From Lachnospiraceae bacterium (GTDB taxonomy: Bacteria > Bacillota > Clostridia > Lachnospirales > Lachnospiraceae), in NCBI GenBank assembly GCA_015056735.1, contig SVFT01000002.1, forward strand, positions 100,432 to 164,431: DNA of 64,000 nt, read 5' to 3'. The notes under the pieces were generated by a model, which searched no databases, was not told the DNA's origin, and saw only the letters and a program-made list of their open reading frames with translations. A program made the translations under genes and the position numbers. Positions 3,704-34,688 of this stretch are shown in pieces (within the stretch, counting starts at the first letter, position 1; every line of letters begins with the position of its first letter).

Positions 3704-5032
3704 ATGAAGAAAAGACTTTTGCTTTCGGAGACGATCTTTGTCTCCAGTATGCTGTTTGGCCTGTTTTTCGGGGCAGGCAACCTGATCTTTCCGGTCCTGA
3801 TGGGGCAGGAGGCAGGGATGAACGTGTGGCCTGCTTCGTTCGGATTTCTGATCACGGGCGTGGGCCTGCCGCTTCTTGCGGTCGCGGCGCTCGGCATGAC
3901 GCGGTGTGACGGGCTCTTTGAACTTGCGGGGCGTGTCGGAACGGCGTACAGCCTCTTTTTTACCTGCGCACTGTATCTGACGATCGGACCGTTCTTTGCG
4001 ATCCCGAGATGCGCGACCGTATCCTTTACGATCGGTGTATCACCGATCCTGGGCGGCGAGTCGGCGCTCTGGCTCTTCGTCTTTTCGGTGTTGTTCTTTG
4101 CGGCGGTTTTGTGGTTCTCGCTCCATCCGAGCGGGATCCTGACATGGGTCGGCAAGATCTTAAATCCGCTGTTCCTTGTATTCCTGGCGATTCTGATGAT
4201 CCGTTCTTTTGTATCGCCGATGGGCTCTGTCTCCGGGATCGAGCCGATGGGCGGCTATATCGCAGCGGCGCTTCCGACCGGCTTCTTTGAAGGCTATAAT
4301 ACGATGGATGCGCTTGCGGGACTGGCATTTGGCATCATCGTCGTTACGGTCATCAAGAACCTCGGCGTGGAAGAGGGCGCGCCCGTTGCCGCCAATACGA
4401 TCCTTTCCGGGTTCTTCAGCTGCCTTCTGATGGGCGTGATCTATGTGCTGATGGCGCTCCTTGGCGCCCAGAGCCGCAATATCATGGAAGCCTGCGGCAA
4501 CGGTGGCGAGGCGCTTGCAAAGATCGCGGAGCATTATTTTGGCAGATACGGCGCATTCCTCCTTGCGATCATGGTCACGGTCGCATGTTTAAAGACGGCT
4601 GTCGGTCTTGTTACGAGCTGCAGCGAGACATTCAAAGGCATGTTTCCGAATGCGCTTGATGAGAAGAAATGGACGTACGTCTTTACGGGTATCTCCTTCG
4701 TCCTTGCAAATCTCGGACTCAACCAGATCATCGAGTTCTCGATTCCGGTGCTCGTTTTCTTATACCCGCTTGCGATGGTGCTGATCCTTCTGGCGCTTTC
4801 TGAGAAAATCTTTGCGGGCAGCAGTCTTGTGTATAAGGTGACGATCTACTGCACGCTGCCGGTGGCGATCTGCGATTTTATCAATGCGCTCCCCTTTGAG
4901 AGCATCCTTGTGGGGCCCGCGCAGACGGTTATCAATACGCTGCCCTTCGGCAATATGGGCTTTGGCTGGTGCATCCCGGCATTTGCAGGGTTTGTGGTGT
5001 CATTCGTGATCGCAAAGTGCCGGAAGGCATGA
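3704..5032 (+). CDS. brnQ: branched-chain amino acid transport system II carrier protein
   Basis: LFGLFFGAGNLIFPVLMGQEAG N-terminal signature, about 12 predicted TM helices, 442 aa. Confidence 0.9.
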   Translation: MKKRLLLSETIFVSSMLFGLFFGAGNLIFPVLMGQEAGMNVWPASFGFLITGVGLPLLAVAALGMTRCDGLFELAGRVGTAYSLFFTCALYLTIGPFFAIPRCATVSFTIGVSPILGGESALWLFVFSVLFFAAVLWFSLHPSGILTWVGKILNPLFLVFLAILMIRSFVSPMGSVSGIEPMGGYIAAALPTGFFEGYNTMDALAGLAFGIIVVTVIKNLGVEEGAPVAANTILSGFFSCLLMGVIYVLMALLGAQSRNIMEACGNGGEALAKIAEHYFGRYGAFLLAIMVTVACLKTAVGLVTSCSETFKGMFPNALDEKKWTYVFTGISFVLANLGLNQIIEFSIPVLVFLYPLAMVLILLALSEKIFAGSSLVYKVTIYCTLPVAICDFINALPFESILVGPAQTVINTLPFGNMGFGWCIPAFAGFVVSFVIAKCRKA

Positions 5033-5060
5033 TTGGGTTAATTTGAGTTTGTAGTAATAA

Positions 5061-5248
5061 GGGCGCGGAGCTGTTTTGAACTATCCTGATGCTGGCTCTC
5101 CGCACTAAATTCGCACGCACTCCTCAGAACATAGGCTTTCTGCGGAACTCGCTTCGCTCAAACAGGTCCTCGAAAGCCTATTGAGGAGCGCATGCTTATT
5201 AAGTGCTACGGCAAGCATCTGGGATAGTAGCAAAACAGCTCCGCGCCC
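5061..5248. repeat. structured palindromic element, copy A (~188 bp, 18-bp perfect self-TIRs GGGCGCGGAGCTGTTTTG / CAAAACAGCTCCGCGCCC)
   Basis: Arms 5061-5137 and 5174-5248 are self-complementary. The asymmetric apex at 5138-5173 is the reverse complement of the apex in copies B and C. Confidence 0.85.
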
Positions 5249-5354
5249 ATTTTAGATTCTGCTTTTATACTACTGGTACAATGACAGGTCGTGAAATGGA
5301 TAATACAATAATATGAGGAATGGAAGATCACGACGAGAGAGGTTTTGTGTACCA

Positions 5355-5951
5355 ATGTTACGCGAAGACGAGATCAAGAAGCAACGTAAAATCGGAAAGC
5401 AGTTAATGCTGGTTAATTTGTTTAATTGTGAAAAGGACAGTGTCGTGCCCGTTTCAATAGACGACGCAGCAGCGTGGGCTTCTATGGATATAAACGATGT
5501 TAGGAAGTTAAGCAACTTTTGGAGAGGGTTTTCATCCTATGAATTATCGTGGGGCGCAGTTCATGCCTATGAACGTGGAGAAGAATATGCGGGTAGAAAC
5601 GCAAATTTATTTTTGTTTAGAACATGTATGGTTTATGGAAGCCTGTCGTTGGAGATATTGATTTGCAATTTAGAAAAGAAATTTGTGGATTATCTAGCAC
5701 ATGAAAATTATACTGAATATTGCAAAAAACACAGCACTCGGCCGATAAGGGATGAAATGAATCAATCGGGAGTTTTTGAAAAAATACTGCGTTATTACGA
5801 GGACCAGTTTATTGAAGTGCTTGAGGATGCAATTGCTGAAGGGTATGATTGGGATGTAATCTGTGAACTGGCGGGCTTTAGTATCTCAACTAAGAAATAT
5901 GCCCGATATTATGAGTCGTGCTTAGAAAAAAGTAAAGTTTCGGAAGCGTGA
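5355..5951 (+). CDS. hypothetical protein, first gene of the cassette (no recognisable domain)
   Basis: Long ORF in low-GC DNA on the same strand as its neighbours. The start is uncertain: ATG 5313 has no RBS, while ATG 5355 follows GAGAGAGG. The C-terminal segment DVICELAGFSISTKKYARYY looks HTH-like. Confidence 0.5.
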   Translation: MLREDEIKKQRKIGKQLMLVNLFNCEKDSVVPVSIDDAAAWASMDINDVRKLSNFWRGFSSYELSWGAVHAYERGEEYAGRNANLFLFRTCMVYGSLSLEILICNLEKKFVDYLAHENYTEYCKKHSTRPIRDEMNQSGVFEKILRYYEDQFIEVLEDAIAEGYDWDVICELAGFSISTKKYARYYESCLEKSKVSEA

Positions 5952-5975
5952 AGATTTCAACTTTCTTAAAGGAGC

Positions 5976-6296
5976 GTGCGGCCTGTGGAGAGAAGATATC
6001 CTGTTCTTGATGTCGTAAAGACCGGACAAAATATAAAGAAAATTATGCAGGCAAGAGGTCTTACTGTTAGAGATATTCAAACGTTTCTCGGACTTGGGAC
6101 ACCGCAAGCAATCTACCATTGGTTTGAAGGGAGAAATGCACCGACACTTGATAACGTGTATGCGCTCAGCGAACTGTTTCGTCTGCCTATAGATGCAATC
6201 TTATGCGGGAACCGGAAGAATATCTTTTTGTCTAGTCAAACTAGTGGGAGAAGGCTATATGCATATTATGTGGGCATCCTTGGGATGATTGCATAA
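5976..6296 (+). CDS. XRE-family helix-turn-helix transcriptional regulator
   Basis: IKKIMQARGLTVRDIQTFLGLGTPQAIYHWFEGRNAPTLDNVYALSELFRLPIDAIL is a classic HTH_3/Cro-C1 pattern. GTG start after AAGGAG. Confidence 0.8.
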   Translation: MRPVERRYPVLDVVKTGQNIKKIMQARGLTVRDIQTFLGLGTPQAIYHWFEGRNAPTLDNVYALSELFRLPIDAILCGNRKNIFLSSQTSGRRLYAYYVGILGMIA

Positions 6297-6321
6297 GGGG
6301 CAACTGCCTGCCGGAATACTG

Positions 6322-6350
6322 TTTATGATCATGATTTATCGTGATATAAT
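6322..6350 (+). promoter_or_regulatory. predicted extended -10 promoter for the 97-aa ORF / vapD pair
   Basis: TGATATAAT at 6342-6350 (TGnTATAAT) with a weak -35 TTTATG about 17 nt upstream. The palindrome ATGATCAT at 6325-6332 overlaps the -35. Confidence 0.45.
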
Positions 6351-6390
6351 ACAGTCAAACTTGTATTTATTTTTTATGAGGTTTGTTATT

Positions 6391-6684
6391 ATGATGAAGA
6401 TGCTTATTAAGATGGATGAAGCAAAAATACGTGAAGAAAGAAAGTATGATATTTCTAAGATCAATGCTTATCTTGCTAAGGCCTTTGCAAAGCGTCATAT
6501 GGAGCTGGATGATGATGGCTGGTATATCAACGGGAATTTTAGTACTTGTGGTTCCCTTATTATCACGCTTTCTCAGAAAGATTGGTTTATTGACAATCTT
6601 ATGGAGTGGCTTTGGTATGACGAAGAGGATGCCAGTACAGAGGATTTAAAAGCTCGTTATTCCAAGGAGAAGACCATTGCCTAA
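6391..6684 (+). CDS. hypothetical 97-aa protein, translationally coupled upstream partner of VapD
   Basis: ATG 6391 follows TGAGGT. The ORF end overlaps the vapD start by 8 nt. I recognise no family. Confidence 0.55.
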   Translation: MMKMLIKMDEAKIREERKYDISKINAYLAKAFAKRHMELDDDGWYINGNFSTCGSLIITLSQKDWFIDNLMEWLWYDEEDASTEDLKARYSKEKTIA

Positions 6685-7018
6685 TGAAGTTAGAAGGCGA
6701 TATGCCATTAATTTTGATCTTACGATTAAACAGCTTGAGGAGCATTACTCGAGTGATCATCCGAAGCGCGCATATGGTCAGATTGCAAGTTATATGAAAA
6801 AGCATGGCTTTTCTCATAGGCAGTGGTCTGGTTATATTTCAGATATAACGCTGACAAAATCGGAACTTGTTGATTTCACATCGGATTTACACATGACTTT
6901 TCCTTGGTTGATAAAATGTGAAGGAAGCATGGATGCAACCGTAATCAGTGGTATTTTTGATATTAAACAAATGATTCTTGATACGATGTCTGATGAAGAC
7001 GATGATATTGAGCTTTGA
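6677..7018 (+). CDS. vapD: VapD-family (Cas2-fold) endoribonuclease-like protein
   Basis: N-terminus RRYAINFDLTIKQLEEHY...KRAYGQIASYMKKHGFSHRQWSGYI follows the VapD pattern (YA..FDL ... Y..I...L...GF...QGSVY). TTG start at 6677 with AAGGAGA 5 nt upstream. Confidence 0.7.
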   Translation: MPNEVRRRYAINFDLTIKQLEEHYSSDHPKRAYGQIASYMKKHGFSHRQWSGYISDITLTKSELVDFTSDLHMTFPWLIKCEGSMDATVISGIFDIKQMILDTMSDEDDDIEL

Positions 7019-7060
7019 ATATGGTTCTATTTCGATTATGTAGATAAATTGCAGCGAAAA

Positions 7061-7091
7061 GCGGCAGGTCAATTTGACCTGTCGCTTTTTG
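7061..7091 (+). terminator. rho-independent terminator after vapD
   Basis: GCGGCAGGTC-AATTT-GACCTGTCGC hairpin followed by TTTTTG. Confidence 0.75.
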
Positions 7092-7126
7092 TTTGTTTCA
7101 ACTTGGTTTAACGAGGAGGTACTGTT

Positions 7127-7753
7127 ATGTGTGAATTTGGTTATGCTCGGATATCATCAAAAGATCAAAATCCGTCTAGACAACTTGATGCTCTTTTGGA
7201 CAGAGGAGTTGAGGAGAGAAATATTTATGTTGATTATGAATCAGGAAAAGATTTTAACCGACCGCAGTATAAGAATTTAATGAATCGATTGAGATATGGC
7301 GATTCTATCGTAATCAAGAGTATTGATCGACTCGGGCGCAACTACGGTGAGATTCTTGACCAATGGAGAATTATAACGCAGATGAAGGGCGTTTTCATCG
7401 AGGTTTTGGACATGCCGCTTTTGAACACATCTGTCCAAAGAGATAATCTTACAGGCCGGTTGATTTCCGACCTGGTTTTGCAAATCTTGGCATATGTCGC
7501 GGAAACAGAAAGATCTTTTATTAAGCAGAGACAGCGTGAGGGAATCATTTCCGCGAAGAAGCGCGGAATTTGTTTTGGAAGGCCGAAAGTGAAAGAATCC
7601 GACCTATTTGAAGTAGCATACTTTAAATGGCTTAAGGGACAATTGTCTTCGCGCGAAGCTGCTGCGTTTGCTGATATGAAGCATTCCACATTCTACCGGC
7701 GTTGCAAAGAGCGGAAAATGTACGAAAACTCCGTGTTAGAAAGTAGACAATGA
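7127..7753 (+). CDS. small serine recombinase (resolvase/invertase family)
   Basis: GYARISSKDQNPSRQLDAL catalytic-serine motif, VIKSIDRLGRN, ERSFIKQRQREGI, C-terminal HTH; 208 aa. RBS GAGGAGG. Confidence 0.9.
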   Translation: MCEFGYARISSKDQNPSRQLDALLDRGVEERNIYVDYESGKDFNRPQYKNLMNRLRYGDSIVIKSIDRLGRNYGEILDQWRIITQMKGVFIEVLDMPLLNTSVQRDNLTGRLISDLVLQILAYVAETERSFIKQRQREGIISAKKRGICFGRPKVKESDLFEVAYFKWLKGQLSSREAAAFADMKHSTFYRRCKERKMYENSVLESRQ

Positions 7754-7858
7754 GAAACAGTCGATTTGTCGCAACATTGTATGCTTTTTCTTCTTTTTTC
7801 TCATTATAAATCTTCCGTTTCAGAAAGTCTGTTTTTTGAAACAAGGAGGAAAGTTATT

Positions 7859-8761
7859 ATGAAGTGTCCAAATTGTGGGGCGGAAATAGGACCTACTAGC
7901 CAGTTTTGTGCATCATGTGGATCTCAAATATCATATGAAATGAAAAGAGAGCAAGAACAATTAAACAAACAAGGTTGTCCTCATTGCGGAAGTTCAAACA
8001 TCTCTTTTAATCGTGAAAAGCAAGCAGAGTTCCGCGCTAAAAATGGAACGAATGTAATTCGGCGTACTGTTGGATTGTGTAAAGACTGCGGTTATACTTG
8101 GAGCACGAACATGGATGTTCCCGAGAAAAAATCTAAACTCTGGTTGTGGGTATTGGGGTGGATATGCATTTTTCCTGTTCCCTTGACCATTTTATTATTG
8201 CGAAATAAAGATATGAAACCAGCTTTGAAATATGCAATTATAGCAGTTGCATGGATTGTATTCCTTATTATTGGTCTGAGTGGAAAGTCAAAAGATACAA
8301 AACAGCAGGCTGCAAATGAAAAGTCACAAACAGAGGTTGAAACAGTTTCAGAAGAAAAAGAAACAGCCAATGCTGATGCTGAAGAAGTGATGGATGTTGT
8401 GCTGAAAGTCGAACCTAATATAAATGTTGATGACGGAACCGTTCTCTTTGGTATAACGACAAATTTGCCAGAGAATACGGAATTGATGATAACGGTATCC
8501 AATGCTGATGGATATAAAGCACAAGATAAAGTTGTCATCCTTGCAAAGGGCTCTGGGTTCACGTCAGAGTTTTCGGATCATGGTAAGGCACTTAAAGGCG
8601 ATTATGATGTAAGCGTTTCGATGAGCTTACCAGCGTTACAAAAGGATTCTGTGAGAAAAGTTATTGGTGAAGAAGGTGAAAGAATAGGTGGGCAGTATGT
8701 AAAGAAAAGTGAGATCGGTCATTCCAATTATGTATCTGGTGAATTTCATTTTTCATTCTAG
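7859..8761 (+). CDS. double zinc-ribbon, two-TM membrane protein with C-terminal extracytoplasmic domain (function unknown)
   Basis: CPNCGAEI..FCASCG and CPHCGSS...CKDCGYTW zinc-ribbon pairs, then two hydrophobic helices (LWLWVLGWICIFPVPLTILLL, YAIIAVAWIVFLIIGL). ATG 7859 follows AAGGAGG. Confidence 0.65.
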   Translation: MKCPNCGAEIGPTSQFCASCGSQISYEMKREQEQLNKQGCPHCGSSNISFNREKQAEFRAKNGTNVIRRTVGLCKDCGYTWSTNMDVPEKKSKLWLWVLGWICIFPVPLTILLLRNKDMKPALKYAIIAVAWIVFLIIGLSGKSKDTKQQAANEKSQTEVETVSEEKETANADAEEVMDVVLKVEPNINVDDGTVLFGITTNLPENTELMITVSNADGYKAQDKVVILAKGSGFTSEFSDHGKALKGDYDVSVSMSLPALQKDSVRKVIGEEGERIGGQYVKKSEIGHSNYVSGEFHFSF

Positions 8762-8778
8762 AGAATGGTGCGAGTATC

Positions 8779-8968
8779 CGGCGCAGGAGGCTGTTTTGCT
8801 ACTATCCCAGATGCTTGCAGGAGCACTTAATGAATGAGTACTCCTCTACAGGCTTTCGAGGACCTGTTTGAGCGAAGCGAGTTCCGCAGAAAGCCTGTGT
8901 TTAGAGGAGTGCTTATGAATTTAGTGCGGAGAGCCAGCATCAGGATAGTTCAAAACAGCTCCGCGCCC
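8779..8968. repeat. structured palindromic element, copy B (inverted relative to copy A)
   Basis: By eye, close to 90% identical to the reverse complement of 5061-5248. Apex at 8856-8891. Confidence 0.85.
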
Positions 8969-8974
8969 TAATAT

Positions 8975-10657
8975 TTACTTGATCACGATCCGCCCCTGCG
9001 GCTCTTTGTAGCGCTCATCCACCCTGCCGCCGAGCTCTTCTGCGATGTAATCGATTACGGCATTCTCAAGCGGGATGCCCAGATTGTTGCCGCCTTTTTC
9101 GTAAGGGGCTTTGAGAACGGTGTAGGTATCGCCGCCGGTTGCGAGAAAGTCGTTGGTGACAAGGATGTATGTCTTATTCAGATCAAGTGGCACGCCGCCG
9201 ACCTTGACATCCGTAATACGTTTGCCGGGTGCTGCCGGTGCAAAGTAAGTGGAGTTTTCGTATGCGGCACCCTTTTCATAAGGGATGCCGGTGTTGATCG
9301 TAAAGCTGATACCTGCTACCTGCGGGAATGCACCGATCGGTTCGGGGTATACGCTACATGCAACTTCGAGCATTTCAAGCACCTGCGCACCGGTAACGGG
9401 GACCGTACAGAGCGTATTACTGAATGGGAACACGCTGATCAGGTCTTTTCTGGTGACTTCGCCGGGAACAACACTTGCGCGGATGTTCCCGCCGTTACAA
9501 ATCGAGATGTCCGCATGGATGCCCGCTTTTCGGAGCGCATAGAGCTGCGCATCGTTTGTGAGGTCACCGAAGTTTGTTTCCGCCGTGCGGCTGCCGTTTG
9601 CAACGGTTTCGATGACGTTTCCTTTCTTATCAAGGATATCGCCGCCTGCTTTCGTGCCGTTTAGGATAACGGATGACTGCGCGATGACCTGTCTGCTTTT
9701 TTCATCAAGGTAAGCGTTATAGGCATCGCCGAGCGCTGTCAGTTCGGGATCGTATGCACCTTTATAATCGGATGCCGAGATCAGAGAGGCGGTCATCTTA
9801 TTTCCGTCGTATACAACCTTTCCGACATTTGCAAGATTGCAGCCGGTGCTGGTAAGGAGCGTATCACCGACCATGATTCCTCCGGGCATCTCGGTATGGC
9901 TGTGTGCGTCAACGAACAGATTGATGCCGGTCGTATGTGCGAGCAGGTCGGTTGAACGGTTCGGGGCATCCGCCTGATCTATGCCCAGGTGGCCGACACA
10001 GATGATCAGATCACAGCCGTGTGCCTTCAGCGTATCGACCTGCGCCTGCGCACAGTCGTAGAGTTCCTGTTCTGCCAGGATCTTGTAAGGCTCCACATAT
10101 TTCGGCATGGATGTTGTGATCGTTGTCGGCGTGGTCAGACCGAAGATGCCGACTTTGTATCCTTTCGGCGTTTGGGTGATGATGTTCGCCGGGAATACGG
10201 GCTTGCCGGAATCTTTGTAGAATACGTTGGCGGAGAGGACGGGAAAACGGATTGCGCCGAGCAGCTTTTCCATATGCGCCGGTGCGTAATCAAATTCGTG
10301 ATTGCCTACCGTCATCATGGTATAGCCGACTCTGTTGACAAAATCGATGGCGGAGTTCCCTTGCGTGACCGTTGTCATGATCGTTCCCTGGATGATGTCT
10401 CCGGCATTGAGGAGCAGTACGTCTGCGCCTGTATCTTCATAGTATTCTTTGATCGCTTTGACACCGGCACTTCCAAGCGATATACCGCTTTCGGCAATGT
10501 CATGTCCGTGCGAATCATTGGTATGCAGAATGACAAGTTTGCCGGAAAGATTTTCTGCCGGCGCCTTTTGGGCAAAAACCGCAAGCGGCATGGCCAAAGT
10601 GAGCACAACGGTCAATGCCGGGAGCATCGCCAGTGCTTTTATCAATCGTTTCTTCAT
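8975..10657 (-). CDS. secreted bifunctional metallophosphatase / 5'-nucleotidase (UshA/CpdB-like)
   Basis: Signal peptide, then ILHTNDSHGH, GDIIQG and GNHEFD metallophosphoesterase motifs plus a C-terminal 5'-nucleotidase domain. Confidence 0.85.
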   Translation of the reverse strand: MKKRLIKALAMLPALTVVLTLAMPLAVFAQKAPAENLSGKLVILHTNDSHGHDIAESGISLGSAGVKAIKEYYEDTGADVLLLNAGDIIQGTIMTTVTQGNSAIDFVNRVGYTMMTVGNHEFDYAPAHMEKLLGAIRFPVLSANVFYKDSGKPVFPANIITQTPKGYKVGIFGLTTPTTITTSMPKYVEPYKILAEQELYDCAQAQVDTLKAHGCDLIICVGHLGIDQADAPNRSTDLLAHTTGINLFVDAHSHTEMPGGIMVGDTLLTSTGCNLANVGKVVYDGNKMTASLISASDYKGAYDPELTALGDAYNAYLDEKSRQVIAQSSVILNGTKAGGDILDKKGNVIETVANGSRTAETNFGDLTNDAQLYALRKAGIHADISICNGGNIRASVVPGEVTRKDLISVFPFSNTLCTVPVTGAQVLEMLEVACSVYPEPIGAFPQVAGISFTINTGIPYEKGAAYENSTYFAPAAPGKRITDVKVGGVPLDLNKTYILVTNDFLATGGDTYTVLKAPYEKGGNNLGIPLENAVIDYIAEELGGRVDERYKEPQGRIVIK

Positions 10658-10718: not shown

Positions 10719-11642
10719 CTATCGCTCGATCGACATCGCCATACGGCGATAGGTGTGCCGGATGCCGCGGATCACTGTGGAATATGCGGTGATGTTCTCG
10801 GGCACGGTGATACCCGGATAACCGCTGTCCCCGAGGTGATGGATATCGGTTCCGGTCATCTTGGACATCAGAGCGATGCGCTTGATCGTATCGGTATCGG
10901 CGCCTTCCTGCGATGTGCCGATCGCGGTCAGCGTCAGAACCCCGAGCGAATGCGCGTATGCGACAAGGCCTGTAACAAGCTGTTCGTTGATGCCGGGTAC
11001 GGTTCCGGGAGCGGGCAGCAGGATGATGTCTGCGCCGGCATCTACAAAATGTCGGATATCCTCTTTGGTGATGATCTTTTCGGCTGCTTCGTTTAAGATC
11101 CCTGCAGCGTGCATTTTGCCGGCTGCCAGAATCACCTTGTCACCGAACGCTTCTTTGTAGGATGACAGAGTTGCCGTGATCTCATCATTTCCAACGCCTG
11201 TGCCGGGATTTCCGGTCAGGAGGATGAGGTCTGCGCCCATTTCTGCGGCACGCCTGCCGTTCTCCACGGTCGCCTTGCGGCCCTCACTCATCGCGCTTTC
11301 AGCCCGGAAGCCCGCCCGCACAGGCTCTAAGTTGATCCCGACGGGACGCCCGGTGAGCTTTTTGATGAGCCGGATGGTATCCTTTTTGTCAAAAGAAGGC
11401 CCCATATCAGGCAGGCCGTTCACAACGGGATCCCATACATCAAACATATTGAGCAGGATGAGATCTGCGCCCATCGATGCAGCTAGCTCCGCATTTGTGA
11501 CATCCATCAGAAGCGGCTGGAACACGCCGATCGTTTCTGCCAGGATCGTACGTCCTTCTGCCTTTCTGATCGATTCGAGCAGTTCGTTTTTATTGAAAGA
11601 ATCAAAATCTGATGCATAACAGTCTAAGATTCGTTTTGCCAT
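10719..11642 (-). CDS. conserved TIM-barrel-like protein of unknown function
   Basis: Alternating beta/alpha pattern with GADLILL repeated twice and GADIILLPAPGT. ATG at 11642 follows AGGAGA; the longer ORF start at 11663 lacks an RBS. Confidence 0.45.
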   Translation of the reverse strand: MAKRILDCYASDFDSFNKNELLESIRKAEGRTILAETIGVFQPLLMDVTNAELAASMGADLILLNMFDVWDPVVNGLPDMGPSFDKKDTIRLIKKLTGRPVGINLEPVRAGFRAESAMSEGRKATVENGRRAAEMGADLILLTGNPGTGVGNDEITATLSSYKEAFGDKVILAAGKMHAAGILNEAAEKIITKEDIRHFVDAGADIILLPAPGTVPGINEQLVTGLVAYAHSLGVLTLTAIGTSQEGADTDTIKRIALMSKMTGTDIHHLGDSGYPGITVPENITAYSTVIRGIRHTYRRMAMSIER

Positions 11643-11796
11643 AGTCTGTCTCCTTTCGTTCATTCTCTATTTCCTATTTTACATGTTTTAATGAGAATAT
11701 GTCATGAAACTTTTGCAAAAGCGGGCATCCCGCGTTATAATAATTGATAATTTTGCTTGTAAACCAGAGCCCATTGGTGAATGATAGGAAGATATC

Positions 11797-12867
11797 ATGG
11801 ATCGACTCCGAAAGTGGTGCTACGGCAACCAGCCCGCCACATTTTTTCAAGAGCATAAGACGCTGATCAACGCCTATAACGTGCATATCAATGATATCAT
11901 GCTCAGGCTGATTCCTGTCCTTTCGGCATTATATCTTGTCAACAGCTATCTCCTGATGGGAAAGGGGAATCCCTACATCAGACAGACCTGCTGGTTTTTT
12001 ATCGTTTGCTTTTCCCTGTTATCCCATATCAGAAAGAAGAATCCGTGGCCGTTTCTTCGCCACTCACTGCTTGACAGCCTGATCTGCGGAGAGATCTCAT
12101 TTCTATTCCTTCTGATGGTCGGTCCGATCTCCGATCCGGGGAATATGTCGGTCTATCATCCGGTTTTCTTCTTCATGCTGTTCCTGCTGTATATCATACC
12201 GCTTCATCATCTGGCACTGTACTGCCTTTTGCATTTTATCCTGTACAGTGTGCTGGATATTTATTGTAAAGGCTACACGATCGCTGTCGCGGATCTCACC
12301 AATGTCATGATCTGCGCGATCGGCGGTTTCATGCTTGGCGGTAATGTTTTAAAGAGCCGTCTTTCCGAGATCGCGTCGTATGATCTCTTAAAGCGTCAGA
12401 GCGAGGAAAAACTTGCAAAAGCGAATGCGCTTGCAAGCAAGGATTCGATGACGCATGTCGGCAACAGGCGTGCTTATCAGGAACTGGAAGAAGAACTCAA
12501 CGAGCTGATCGAACAGGGGAGGGCCCCTGCTTTTGCGGTGGTTGTCTGTGATGTGAACGGACTGAAAGCTATGAACGACACGGGCGGTCATAAGAAGGGC
12601 GACCGACTGATCCAGAAATGCTGCGCGGATATCTGCTCTGTCTATGTGCATTCGCCTGTTTTCCGTTACGGAGGCGACGAATTTGTTGTGATCCTCAGAG
12701 ACGGTGATTATGAGAATCGTGAAGTGCATTTCAGACAGCTTCGCAGTTATACGGAATTTTCAAGCGGCATGGCGATCTTTACTGCCTCAGGAGACAAAAC
12801 GGTCGCAGATGTTTTCCAGCGTGCGGACCTTCGCATGTATGCGCATAAGAATGATCGCAGACACTAA
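11797..12867 (+). CDS. membrane-anchored diguanylate cyclase (GGDEF)
   Basis: Multi-TM N-terminus. DSMTHVGNRRAY, VVVCDVNGLKAMND and RYGGDEFVVIL. Confidence 0.85.
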   Translation: MDRLRKWCYGNQPATFFQEHKTLINAYNVHINDIMLRLIPVLSALYLVNSYLLMGKGNPYIRQTCWFFIVCFSLLSHIRKKNPWPFLRHSLLDSLICGEISFLFLLMVGPISDPGNMSVYHPVFFFMLFLLYIIPLHHLALYCLLHFILYSVLDIYCKGYTIAVADLTNVMICAIGGFMLGGNVLKSRLSEIASYDLLKRQSEEKLAKANALASKDSMTHVGNRRAYQELEEELNELIEQGRAPAFAVVVCDVNGLKAMNDTGGHKKGDRLIQKCCADICSVYVHSPVFRYGGDEFVVILRDGDYENREVHFRQLRSYTEFSSGMAIFTASGDKTVADVFQRADLRMYAHKNDRRH

Positions 12868-34364: not shown

Positions 34365-34414
34365 ACAGTTTTGAAAGAGACAGCTTCTGAAAGGCTTGTC
34401 TCAAAACAGGGGAC

Positions 34415-34591
34415 CGCTTTCTCCTTACTGTTTCCCATGCATTCGCATGTGCACTTAGCGAATCGGTCTTCTTCAACGATCATTTCGAGGACTGTTTGAG
34501 CGAAGCGAGTTCCGCAGAAATGATCGACGCTTTGAAGAAGGCGGATGAGTTTAGTGCCGAAATGCGCGCATGGAAACAGTATGAGAAAGCG
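34415..34591. repeat. structured palindromic element, copy C (same apex as A/B, different arms)
   Basis: The apex at 34485-34519 matches 8856-8891 except for one missing C. Arms 34415-34484 and 34520-34591 are self-complementary. GCACTTA and TTTAGTGC boxes are shared with A/B. Confidence 0.8.
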
Positions 34592-34688
34592 CTTTATCTA
34601 TCTAGACAAATGCCTCCAAACATAGTAAAATATACAAGAATTTTGGGCTATTTATATAACTCATAAAATAGAAAGGAAGGGAAATGTC

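Follow-up and report, generated by a model that had tools for sequence, protein, structure and literature searches.

Hairpin repeats, a low-GC gene islet and a serine invertase with a candidate 82-bp inverton as probable separate neighbours at one Lachnospiraceae locus

DNA inversion systems of the Hin/Gin type are built from 26-bp hix or gix sites, with a promoter-carrying H segment next to the gene for Hin, and Hin is itself encoded inside the segment that it inverts. Invertons are mostly short: more than 75% of the 10,983 catalogued ones measure less than 300 bases (PMC11602134). Here we analyse a locus that seemed to present an inversion system of unusual form. It lies in a stretch of 64,000 nucleotides (the window; contig SVFT01000002.1, positions 100,432 to 164,431, assembly GCA_015056735.1) from a Lachnospiraceae bacterium. 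Between a gene for a branched-chain amino-acid transporter (brnQ) and a 5'-nucleotidase gene, six genes are bracketed by two inverted palindromes of about 190 bp, hairpins A and B (Table 1), and one of the six encodes a serine recombinase of 208 amino acids. The initial annotation of this DNA offered two readings of the 3.9-kb unit. Either the recombinase inverts the segment in Hin/Gin style, or the unit is a composite element mobilised through ends resembling miniature inverted-repeat transposable elements (MITEs); no described element with this architecture was named.

We suggest, with a probability of roughly two in three, that three separate neighbours meet here: hairpin repeats of the host, a foreign islet in a variable spot, and an invertase with its own inverton. 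Hairpin A would belong to the 3' end of brnQ and hairpin B to that of the nucleotidase gene. At this locus, which varies in all the relatives examined, the islet would occupy the short spacer between the 3'-end hairpins of the convergent genes, and would bring with it a gene pair (the 198-aa protein and the XRE regulator), a VapD-type pair and the invertase module. Most likely it arrived, and is exchanged, by recombination at a hot spot and was not transposed as a palindrome-ended unit. As far as sequence comparison can tell, the recombinase most likely flips an 82-bp promoter switch of its own and not the segment between A and B. If this is correct, the apparent element of a recombinase with 190-bp palindromic sites is a false lead, which resolves into known kinds: an integrase-less hot-spot islet, hairpins similar to repetitive extragenic palindromic (REP) sequences, enterobacterial repetitive intergenic consensus (ERIC) sequences or MITEs, and a serine invertase with an inverton.

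The recombinase matches Pfam Resolvase (2e-26, residues 4-147), and the PHROG family "DNA invertase" (PHROG_125) covers residues 4-203 at 1.9e-47. The nearest solved structure is Sin/Tn552 Bin3 (4.4e-28), with Gin at 1.9e-15; the NCBIfam Mpi model gives 37 bits, far under its cut-off of 272. Recombinases named "res" on Bacillus plasmids are about 50% identical to it, and numerous homologues reach 58-72%. The catalytic residues R8, S10, D67, R68 and R71 are invariant, together with Q14, in 26 homologues. We examined the gene context in five relatives of 66-72% identity (P0001, P0003, P0004, P0006 and P0010; P-numbers label homologous proteins, L-numbers fetched contigs or loci). Usually a small divergent gene stands upstream of the recombinase gene and variable cargo downstream of it. 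The cargo is partly defence-like (Band_7/SHOCT, TIR, DUF87, SLFN), and its slot is taken in the window by the zinc-ribbon gene. The region upstream of the recombinase gene is not conserved with the relatives; what they have in common is a non-coding block directly at its 3' side. No palindrome of the A/B type was found near any recombinase relative, nor were long inverted repeats found around the homologous recombinases.

Two candidate crossover sites stand in inverted orientation at the 3' end of the gene, the first of them over its stop codon (Table 1). Both are hix-like and 26 bp long, with 12-bp half-sites around a 2-bp core, AG in one site and CT in the other. The pair is conserved in five elements, with position and sequence kept in L101, L106, L110 and L112; in L117, a viral contig with a more distant relative, such a pair occupies the same place, the sites being 84 bp apart start to start. 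The module was located at L101:7640-7732, L106:7612-7714 and L117:2126-2235, and also in L110, L112 and L113. When a position-weight model of the sites was run over the 64 kb, site 2 ranked best and site 1 second; the next match, at 9.7 bits, was already at the level of shuffled sequence. The same model found nothing in A, B or the further hairpin copy D of the window, A and B scoring -6.6. Since it was built partly from the window's own two sites, the informative result is the absence of matches elsewhere.

Both orientations are found among relatives. In L112/L113, whose recombinase is 68% identical to ours, the inner 82 bp are 90% identical to those of L106/L110 only after reverse-complementing, and 56-60% identical as they stand. 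The inner half-sites are swapped, the outer half-sites are unchanged, and the exchange falls exactly at the core dinucleotides, which is the outcome expected from strand exchange by a serine recombinase at the cores. The inverton also contains a perfectly conserved TATAAT, and 17 nt upstream of it a (T/C)AGACT that spans the site core. In the window these motifs read CAGACT (7831-7826) and TATAAT (7808-7803) on the minus strand with 17 nt between them, so that the -35-like box lies across the core of site 2. L101, L106 and L110 likewise have the promoter-like pair on the minus strand, L112 on the plus strand.

From these motifs we infer that the inverton holds a promoter and that its two orientations could be read as ON and OFF. 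In the mechanism we propose, the 208-aa protein would be a DNA invertase acting on the two inverted sites. Inversion would move the conserved TATAAT between the sites, and each core would supply a -35-like (T/C)AGAC. The promoter would then point back into the recombinase gene, as in the state found in the window, or, after a flip, forward into the zinc-ribbon cargo gene. Crossover sites that serve as -35 boxes at the same time would make this a minimal toggle, of possible interest to engineers of recombinase switches.

We now turn to the palindromes. That A and B are reverse complements of each other was correctly recognised at the outset: in global alignment A and the reverse complement of B agree at 173 of 192 positions, and A and direct B at only 139 of 200. 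The arms of the inverted repeat (5057-5239 and 8790-8972) measure 183 nt and are 90% complementary. The outer 53 nt (5060-5112 against 8969-8917) are identical, which confirms the 52-53 nt first reported, and AATA is indeed present at both ends (5056-5059 and 8970-8973), flanking the A-B pair and not the individual copies. In the 25 nt that follow the identical run, A and B differ at 6 positions, and for at least 2 of these a mirrored change can be seen in the other arm of each copy. Folded as DNA, A reaches -62.1 kcal/mol (z = -11.0) and B -55.1 kcal/mol (z = -9.6); in neither case did any of 200 shuffles fold as well. Both copies have 18-nt terminal inverted repeats (GGGCGCGGAGCTGTTTTG), the inner terminus of B being degenerate (GGCGCAGGAGGCTG). 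Their GC content is host-like (0.537 for A, 0.516 for B).

Further copies of the hairpin were sought in about 68 kb of host-genome DNA, that is, in the window and its flanks, and two were found outside the unit. BLAST of fetched contigs located copy C right behind a chemoreceptor gene, 2.7 kb before the first position of the window; it shares 93-95% identity with the reverse complement of B. Copy D lies within the window; the names of its flanking genes in Table 1 were read from translations. Its 39-nt apex is 97% identical to that of A and B, and its stems differ yet still pair. The consensus structure of five copies comprises 69 pairs, of which 15 show compensatory double changes, and its apex of about 40 nt is invariant; in C and D the termini differ from those of A and B while the apex stays the same. 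No low-GC islet stands beside C or D. At copy C (L009:1398-1700), about 2.3 partial repeats of the right arm, with a unit of about 65 nt, follow the hairpin in tandem. D stands alone in having the reverse orientation with respect to the gene upstream of it.

Copies A, B, C and D, as well as those in L020, L114 and L115, are all placed just after stop codons. One and the same arm, which we call outer, is turned towards the neighbouring stop codon in A, B and C, and also in the hairpin of L115, the copy of L020 and the first copy of L114 (P1). The brnQ stop codon is at 5030-5032 and the nucleotidase reading frame ends at 8975, both genes converging on the unit. The inverted arrangement of A and B is there because the outer arm of each faces the stop codon of its own gene and these genes converge. 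The location of the unit between the stops of convergent genes thus stands as first described; the view that both genes belong to the core has to be relaxed, for the nucleotidase gene is missing in L021.

Related junctions can be compared directly, as had been proposed, and an empty site does exist. In L115 (85% nucleotide identity in brnQ, 74% in the nucleotidase region) the nucleotidase stop is followed by an ordinary intrinsic terminator, an 82-nt hairpin, 25 nt and the brnQ stop, with no cassette. The arms of this short hairpin are orthologous to the basal 40 bp or so of the stem of A. L020 has a B-type copy at exactly the same nucleotidase-stop junction, 98.9% identical to B; on its other side stand a terminator, another gene and IS21-like genes, and no such cassette. 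With an A orthologue in the empty L115 and a B orthologue in L020, both ends are older than the cassette and go with the flanking genes. L021, a Lachnospiraceae metagenome-assembled genome and the closest species representative (85-88% identical), is syntenic on both sides and has neither hairpins nor cassette nor nucleotidase gene at the brnQ locus; at the locus of C it carries a classical bidirectional terminator in place of the hairpin. A and B are therefore most likely members of a lineage-specific family of host hairpin repeats, resident and independent of the cassette. The hairpins would mark edges of variable DNA.

The family is narrowly distributed and, to judge from the searches made, undescribed. 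It has no Rfam family; a permissive scan of 4800-9200 gave only a chance match to CsrC (E = 0.84). A 24-base hairpin pattern that matches all four arms in the window had 0 matches in species-representative genomes (one genome per species) and was found in metagenomes on one contig, L020. The apex motif gave nothing in viral contigs, and an nhmmer profile of the hairpin detected no copy in 80 loci of brnQ relatives or in any locus of recombinase relatives. Nothing convincing was seen in the way of target-site duplications around single hairpin copies. Invariant apex, covarying stems, lack of an Rfam match and unusual conservation across lineages together set the family apart. We also considered insertion of the islet into the loop of one ancestral hairpin, whose two arms would now be the outer parts of A and B; this was rejected, as complete solitary copies of 190 nt exist (C, L020 and P1 of L114).

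The interior of the unit differs from its surroundings, as anticipated. Its GC content stands at 0.390 against 0.51-0.52 in the flanks, and GC at third codon positions at 0.31-0.42 in the six cassette genes against 0.55-0.71 in the neighbouring genes. Together with the empty site in L115, this supports the horizontal origin proposed for a compositionally foreign interior. Megablast of the whole unit against collections of plasmid and phage DNA gave no match, and the unit of A, cassette and B was not found at any other locus. A Pfam scan of the six cassette genes and two flanking genes revealed no tyrosine recombinase, and no transposase is encoded in or near the unit.

Table 1. Features of the unit and of the solitary hairpin D, in coordinates of the window
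Feature	Position	Strand	Remarks
Hairpin copy A	5061-5248	n/a	28 nt past brnQ stop, outer arm facing brnQ
Low-GC accessory islet, six same-strand genes	5249-8778	+	GC 0.390; absent from L115 and L021
198-aa protein, no assigned family	5355-5951 (alternative start 5313)	+	conserved pair with next HTH gene
XRE-family helix-turn-helix (HTH) regulator	5976-6296	+	Pfam HTH_3 1.6e-8; PHROG transcriptional regulator families
97-aa protein, no Pfam, PHROG or NCBIfam match	6391-6684	+	8-nt overlap with VapD gene
Putative VapD-family protein, Cas2-like endoribonuclease fold	6677-7018	+	NCBIfam VapD, PDB 9kan
Terminator-like hairpin and T-run, GCGAAAAGCGGCAGGTCAATTTGACCTGTCGCTTTTTGTTTG	7054-7095	+	between VapD and recombinase genes; read from sequence
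Small serine recombinase, 208 aa	7127-7753	+	resolvase/invertase type; N-terminal catalytic domain and C-terminal HTH
Candidate crossover site 1, GTGTTAGAAAGT-AG-ACAATGAGAAAC	7733-7758	+	overlaps recombinase stop codon; position-weight score 25.1 bits
Invertible segment (inverton), 82 bp, candidate	7747-7828	n/a	between site cores, 3' of recombinase gene
Candidate crossover site 2, GTTTCAGAAAGT-CT-GTTTTTTGAAAC	7817-7842	+	inverted relative to site 1; position-weight score 30.2 bits
300-aa double zinc-ribbon protein	7859-8761	+	Pfam Zn_Ribbon_1, DZR; cargo gene downstream of inverton
Hairpin copy B	8779-8968	n/a	6 nt past 5'-nucleotidase stop, outer arm facing nucleotidase
Hairpin copy D, diverged, solitary	34400-34597	n/a	between MATE-type efflux gene stop and aldolase-like gene

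Several of the islet genes deserve a short comment. The 198-aa protein is nearly an orphan: it has no match in Pfam, PHROG or NCBIfam, tblastn against plasmids returned nothing, and among 5.8 billion proteins a single homologue was found (P0122, 55% identity). The gene for P0122, in L114, is likewise followed by an HTH_3 gene. The putative VapD protein scores 2e-24 with the NCBIfam model (85.8 bits, below the curated cut-off of 100) and 8e-14 with the VapD of PDB 9kan. The overlap of their genes suggests that the 97-aa protein may be the partner of VapD. A consensus terminator scan did not call the terminator-like hairpin downstream of them. The zinc-ribbon protein is probably membrane-bound, as hydrophobic stretches in its translation indicate.

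The neighbourhoods of the relatives hold some observations of their own. Beside the B-type hairpin of L020, an IS21-like pair of open reading frames lies in the variable region (L020:301-2629), encoding an IstA-like transposase and an IstB-like ATPase, both read from translations. The interval between brnQ and the DUF7916 gene in L021 (L021:10160-11928) contains genes for a putative leader peptide of 83 aa (GG motif, Cys-rich tail) and for a 511-aa putative radical-SAM/SPASM maturase; to judge by their translations, they look like a pair for a ribosomally synthesized and post-translationally modified peptide. Next to the DUF7916 gene, a GGDEF gene (window 11743-12845) is missing from L021 and present in L115, a second indel difference nearby; at 11400-12000 of the window GC content dips to 41-43%. 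Among recombinase relatives, L103-L105, which come from the sample series of the window, have the recombinase gene (for P0010, 66% identical) at the edge of a variable flank. One contig has a tRNA methyltransferase gene in this flank and others have two large serine recombinase genes, with adjoining mobilisation genes of the MobA/MobL type. A single-protein scan of viral contigs found no recombinase relatives, whereas an alignment-based scan did find some. On the viral contigs L166, L174, L182 and L186-L195, the recombinases are 47-53% identical, and about 180 bp upstream of the gene stands one site with half-sites of this kind, such as GTTTAAAAAGGT-AC-ACCTTTATAAAC; any partner would fall beyond the 1.5-kb flanks.

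Several observations weigh against the interpretation we prefer. The inverton has one orientation in all 14 contigs of this strain that an exact look-up of the recombinase retrieved (13 were retrieved with brnQ and 9 with the nucleotidase, from several ENA, JGI and Logan samples); both states occur among homologous elements, and no flipping within the population was seen. Moreover, 82 bp is short for a serine-recombinase synapse. With regard to the hairpins, the 64 kb contain only three family members, two of which come to within a few nucleotides of the islet. At such low density the bracketing is not a chance meeting with an abundant repeat. Insertion between two terminal hairpins explains the bracketing only if the ancestral spacer was short. 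In addition, the hairpins of the window, L020 and L114 are 98-99% identical (98.6% between B and P1 of L114) next to nucleotidase 3' ends of about 75% identity as estimated from high-scoring segment pairs, and the high similarity between lineages begins about 24 nt inside the nucleotidase 3' end. Passive residency leaves this unexplained.

The contig L114 is equally uncomfortable. This single contig of 1.8 kb, which ends inside its second palindrome, has a related two-gene cassette (homologues of the 198-aa protein and the HTH regulator, 70% nucleotide identity) between inverted palindromes. It runs from the nucleotidase 3' end through P1, a flank of about 24 nt, and the terminator and gene fragment seen in L020, to a 9-nt remnant of a palindrome terminus, the two homologues, a terminator, an inverted copy of the 24-nt flank and finally P2, inverted to P1. 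Its cassette points away from the nucleotidase gene, opposite to that of the window, and the duplication of the flank along with the palindrome hints that the palindromes are active in rearrangements. Finally, a Logan contig from a strain of 98.4% identity (L015:1851-1950) has a B-type (consensus) mid-arm beside brnQ and not an A-type one; variation between strains, gene conversion or an inverted state may lie behind this.

Such facts raise the question whether the hairpins take part in the traffic of cassettes. General recombination, of the RecA type or associated with replication, might flip or swap the segment between the 190-bp hairpins on an evolutionary time scale without help from the cassette recombinase, the hairpins serving as portable homology that moves cassettes between lineages. 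We consider this unlikely but by no means negligible; gene conversion or local inverted duplication might equally make the hairpins recombination substrates. It agrees with the inverted cassette of L114, the B-type arm of L015 and the near identity of hairpins (about 99%) beside neighbours at about 75%, with its onset inside the nucleotidase gene; also the 53 identical nucleotides of A and B, followed by 6 differences in 25, resemble a conversion or crossover boundary. However, every assembly of this species that spans one junction or both (L001-L005, L010, L011 and L017) is colinear with the window at 99.99-100%; the short Logan contigs end within the arms or apex that the copies share, as repeats lead one to expect, and are without orientation information. 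L114 is a lone contig that stops within a palindrome, and its cassette is separated from P1 by the terminator and the gene fragment shared with L020, so a simple inversion of a window-like state cannot yield it. A bolder idea, quite unlikely in our opinion, makes the hairpins of about 190 nt active recombination modules. A hairpin-dependent process, encoded by the host or associated with replication, would capture, invert and exchange cassettes between paired hairpins located at the 3' ends of genes, and would keep the hairpins uniform across lineages. If true, it would account for the disparity between hairpin and gene identities, for the inverted duplication of hairpin and 24 nt in L114, for the opposite cassette orientations and for the exact abutment of the islet to both hairpins.

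The two readings offered initially fare worse. For a composite transposon, in which two MITE-like hairpins and a transposase supplied in trans moved 3.5 kb into an AATA target between brnQ and the nucleotidase gene, one can cite the perfect outer inverted repeat of 53 nt with AATA on both sides, the 18-nt terminal inverted repeats of each element and the degenerate inner end of B, as is often the case at inner ends of composite transposons. We nevertheless find it very unlikely. The single ends are kept in the absence of the cassette, the A orthologue beside brnQ in L115 and B at the same nucleotide in L020; no transposase accompanies the unit; the apex is best conserved and the termini of C and D differ, the reverse of the MITE pattern; and at the locus of C a terminator appears to have been replaced, which does not look like a clean insertion with target duplication. 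A 4-bp match counts for little when both it and the flanks are AT-rich. As to Hin/Gin-style inversion of the 3.5-kb segment, with A and B as long structured sites, the recombinase gene does lie inside a segment bounded by inverted repeats, as expected from Hin. This is nonetheless extremely improbable, for the cognate 26-bp sites are located elsewhere and nothing in A or B resembles them, the five homologues of 66-72% identity do without such palindromes, the palindromes do without the recombinase at C, D, L020 and L115, and the orientation is fixed in all assemblies. We hence return to three separate neighbours as the preferred explanation.

What is new here is modest: an undescribed hairpin family with an invariant apex, and an unusually compact invertase-inverton module of 82 bp with variable cargo. 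The module (gene, site at the stop codon, 82-bp flip segment, second site and cargo) would be portable, and it recurs in the sampled public genome and metagenome assemblies, some of them annotated as Lachnospiraceae. Its cargo suggests phase-variable expression of accessory or defence genes.

It remains to place the three parts among known systems. Like composite transposons, the unit has inverted repeat copies that bracket unrelated genes, identical outer ends and a possible 4-bp direct repeat. It differs from them in that each flanking repeat occurs alone at the orthologous site in cassette-less relatives and that there is no transposase. The resemblance to integron attC cassettes lies in imperfect palindromes that border genes and in conservation of structure rather than sequence; here, however, tyrosine IntI, attI and Pc are absent, the hairpins of about 190 nt also stand singly at ordinary gene 3' ends, and the cassette consists of six genes with their own promoters. 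With REP sequences and the bacterial interspersed mosaic elements (BIMEs) made of them, with ERIC sequences and with MITE-like repeats (Correia, RUP, BOX), the hairpins share their nature as multi-copy imperfect palindromes of about 80-190 nt, found in intergenic positions after stop codons or between convergent genes. Stable folding, short and long forms and compensatory stem changes are shared with the REP/ERIC-like repeats as well. The differences concern the most conserved part, which is the apex of about 40 nt and not the termini, the covarying stems, the low density (three per 64 kb) and the lack of an identified REP-associated tyrosine transposase (RAYT) or other transposase. Conservation of MITEs likewise differs, as terminal inverted repeats are not the best-conserved part of this family.

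The recombinase finds its best match of sequence and structure for the catalytic domain among the Sin, beta and Tn3-family resolvases. Unlike systems with res sites, it has no multi-subsite res of direct repeats upstream within the 64 kb scanned, and one inverted pair of single sites downstream. To Hin, Gin, Cin and Pin it is related by its build, a small serine recombinase with catalytic N-terminus and C-terminal HTH. The Hin/Gin likeness extends to two inverted 26-bp sites with imperfect 12-bp half-sites, an asymmetric 2-bp core and, to judge from the relatives, exchange at the core, and to a putative promoter-carrying invertible segment that adjoins the recombinase gene. The segment has 82 bp here against roughly 1-4 kb there, the sequence of the recombinase is nearer to Sin/Bin3 resolvases (4e-28) than to Gin (1.9e-15), and the -35-like box is apparently supplied by the crossover sites. 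To our knowledge no equivalent of Fis has been established in Lachnospiraceae. Similar in layout are promoter invertons of gut bacteria (those of the PhaseFinder/DeepInverton type and the Mpi-controlled ones of Bacteroides), in which, as proposed here, a short invertible promoter lies between inverted repeats, close to an invertase gene, and switches a surface or membrane gene downstream. The locus described here departs from them in that the invertase gene is immediately upstream, with site 1 over its stop codon, and in that the cargo with which the module travels in Lachnospiraceae and related metagenomic contigs is variable and partly defence-like.

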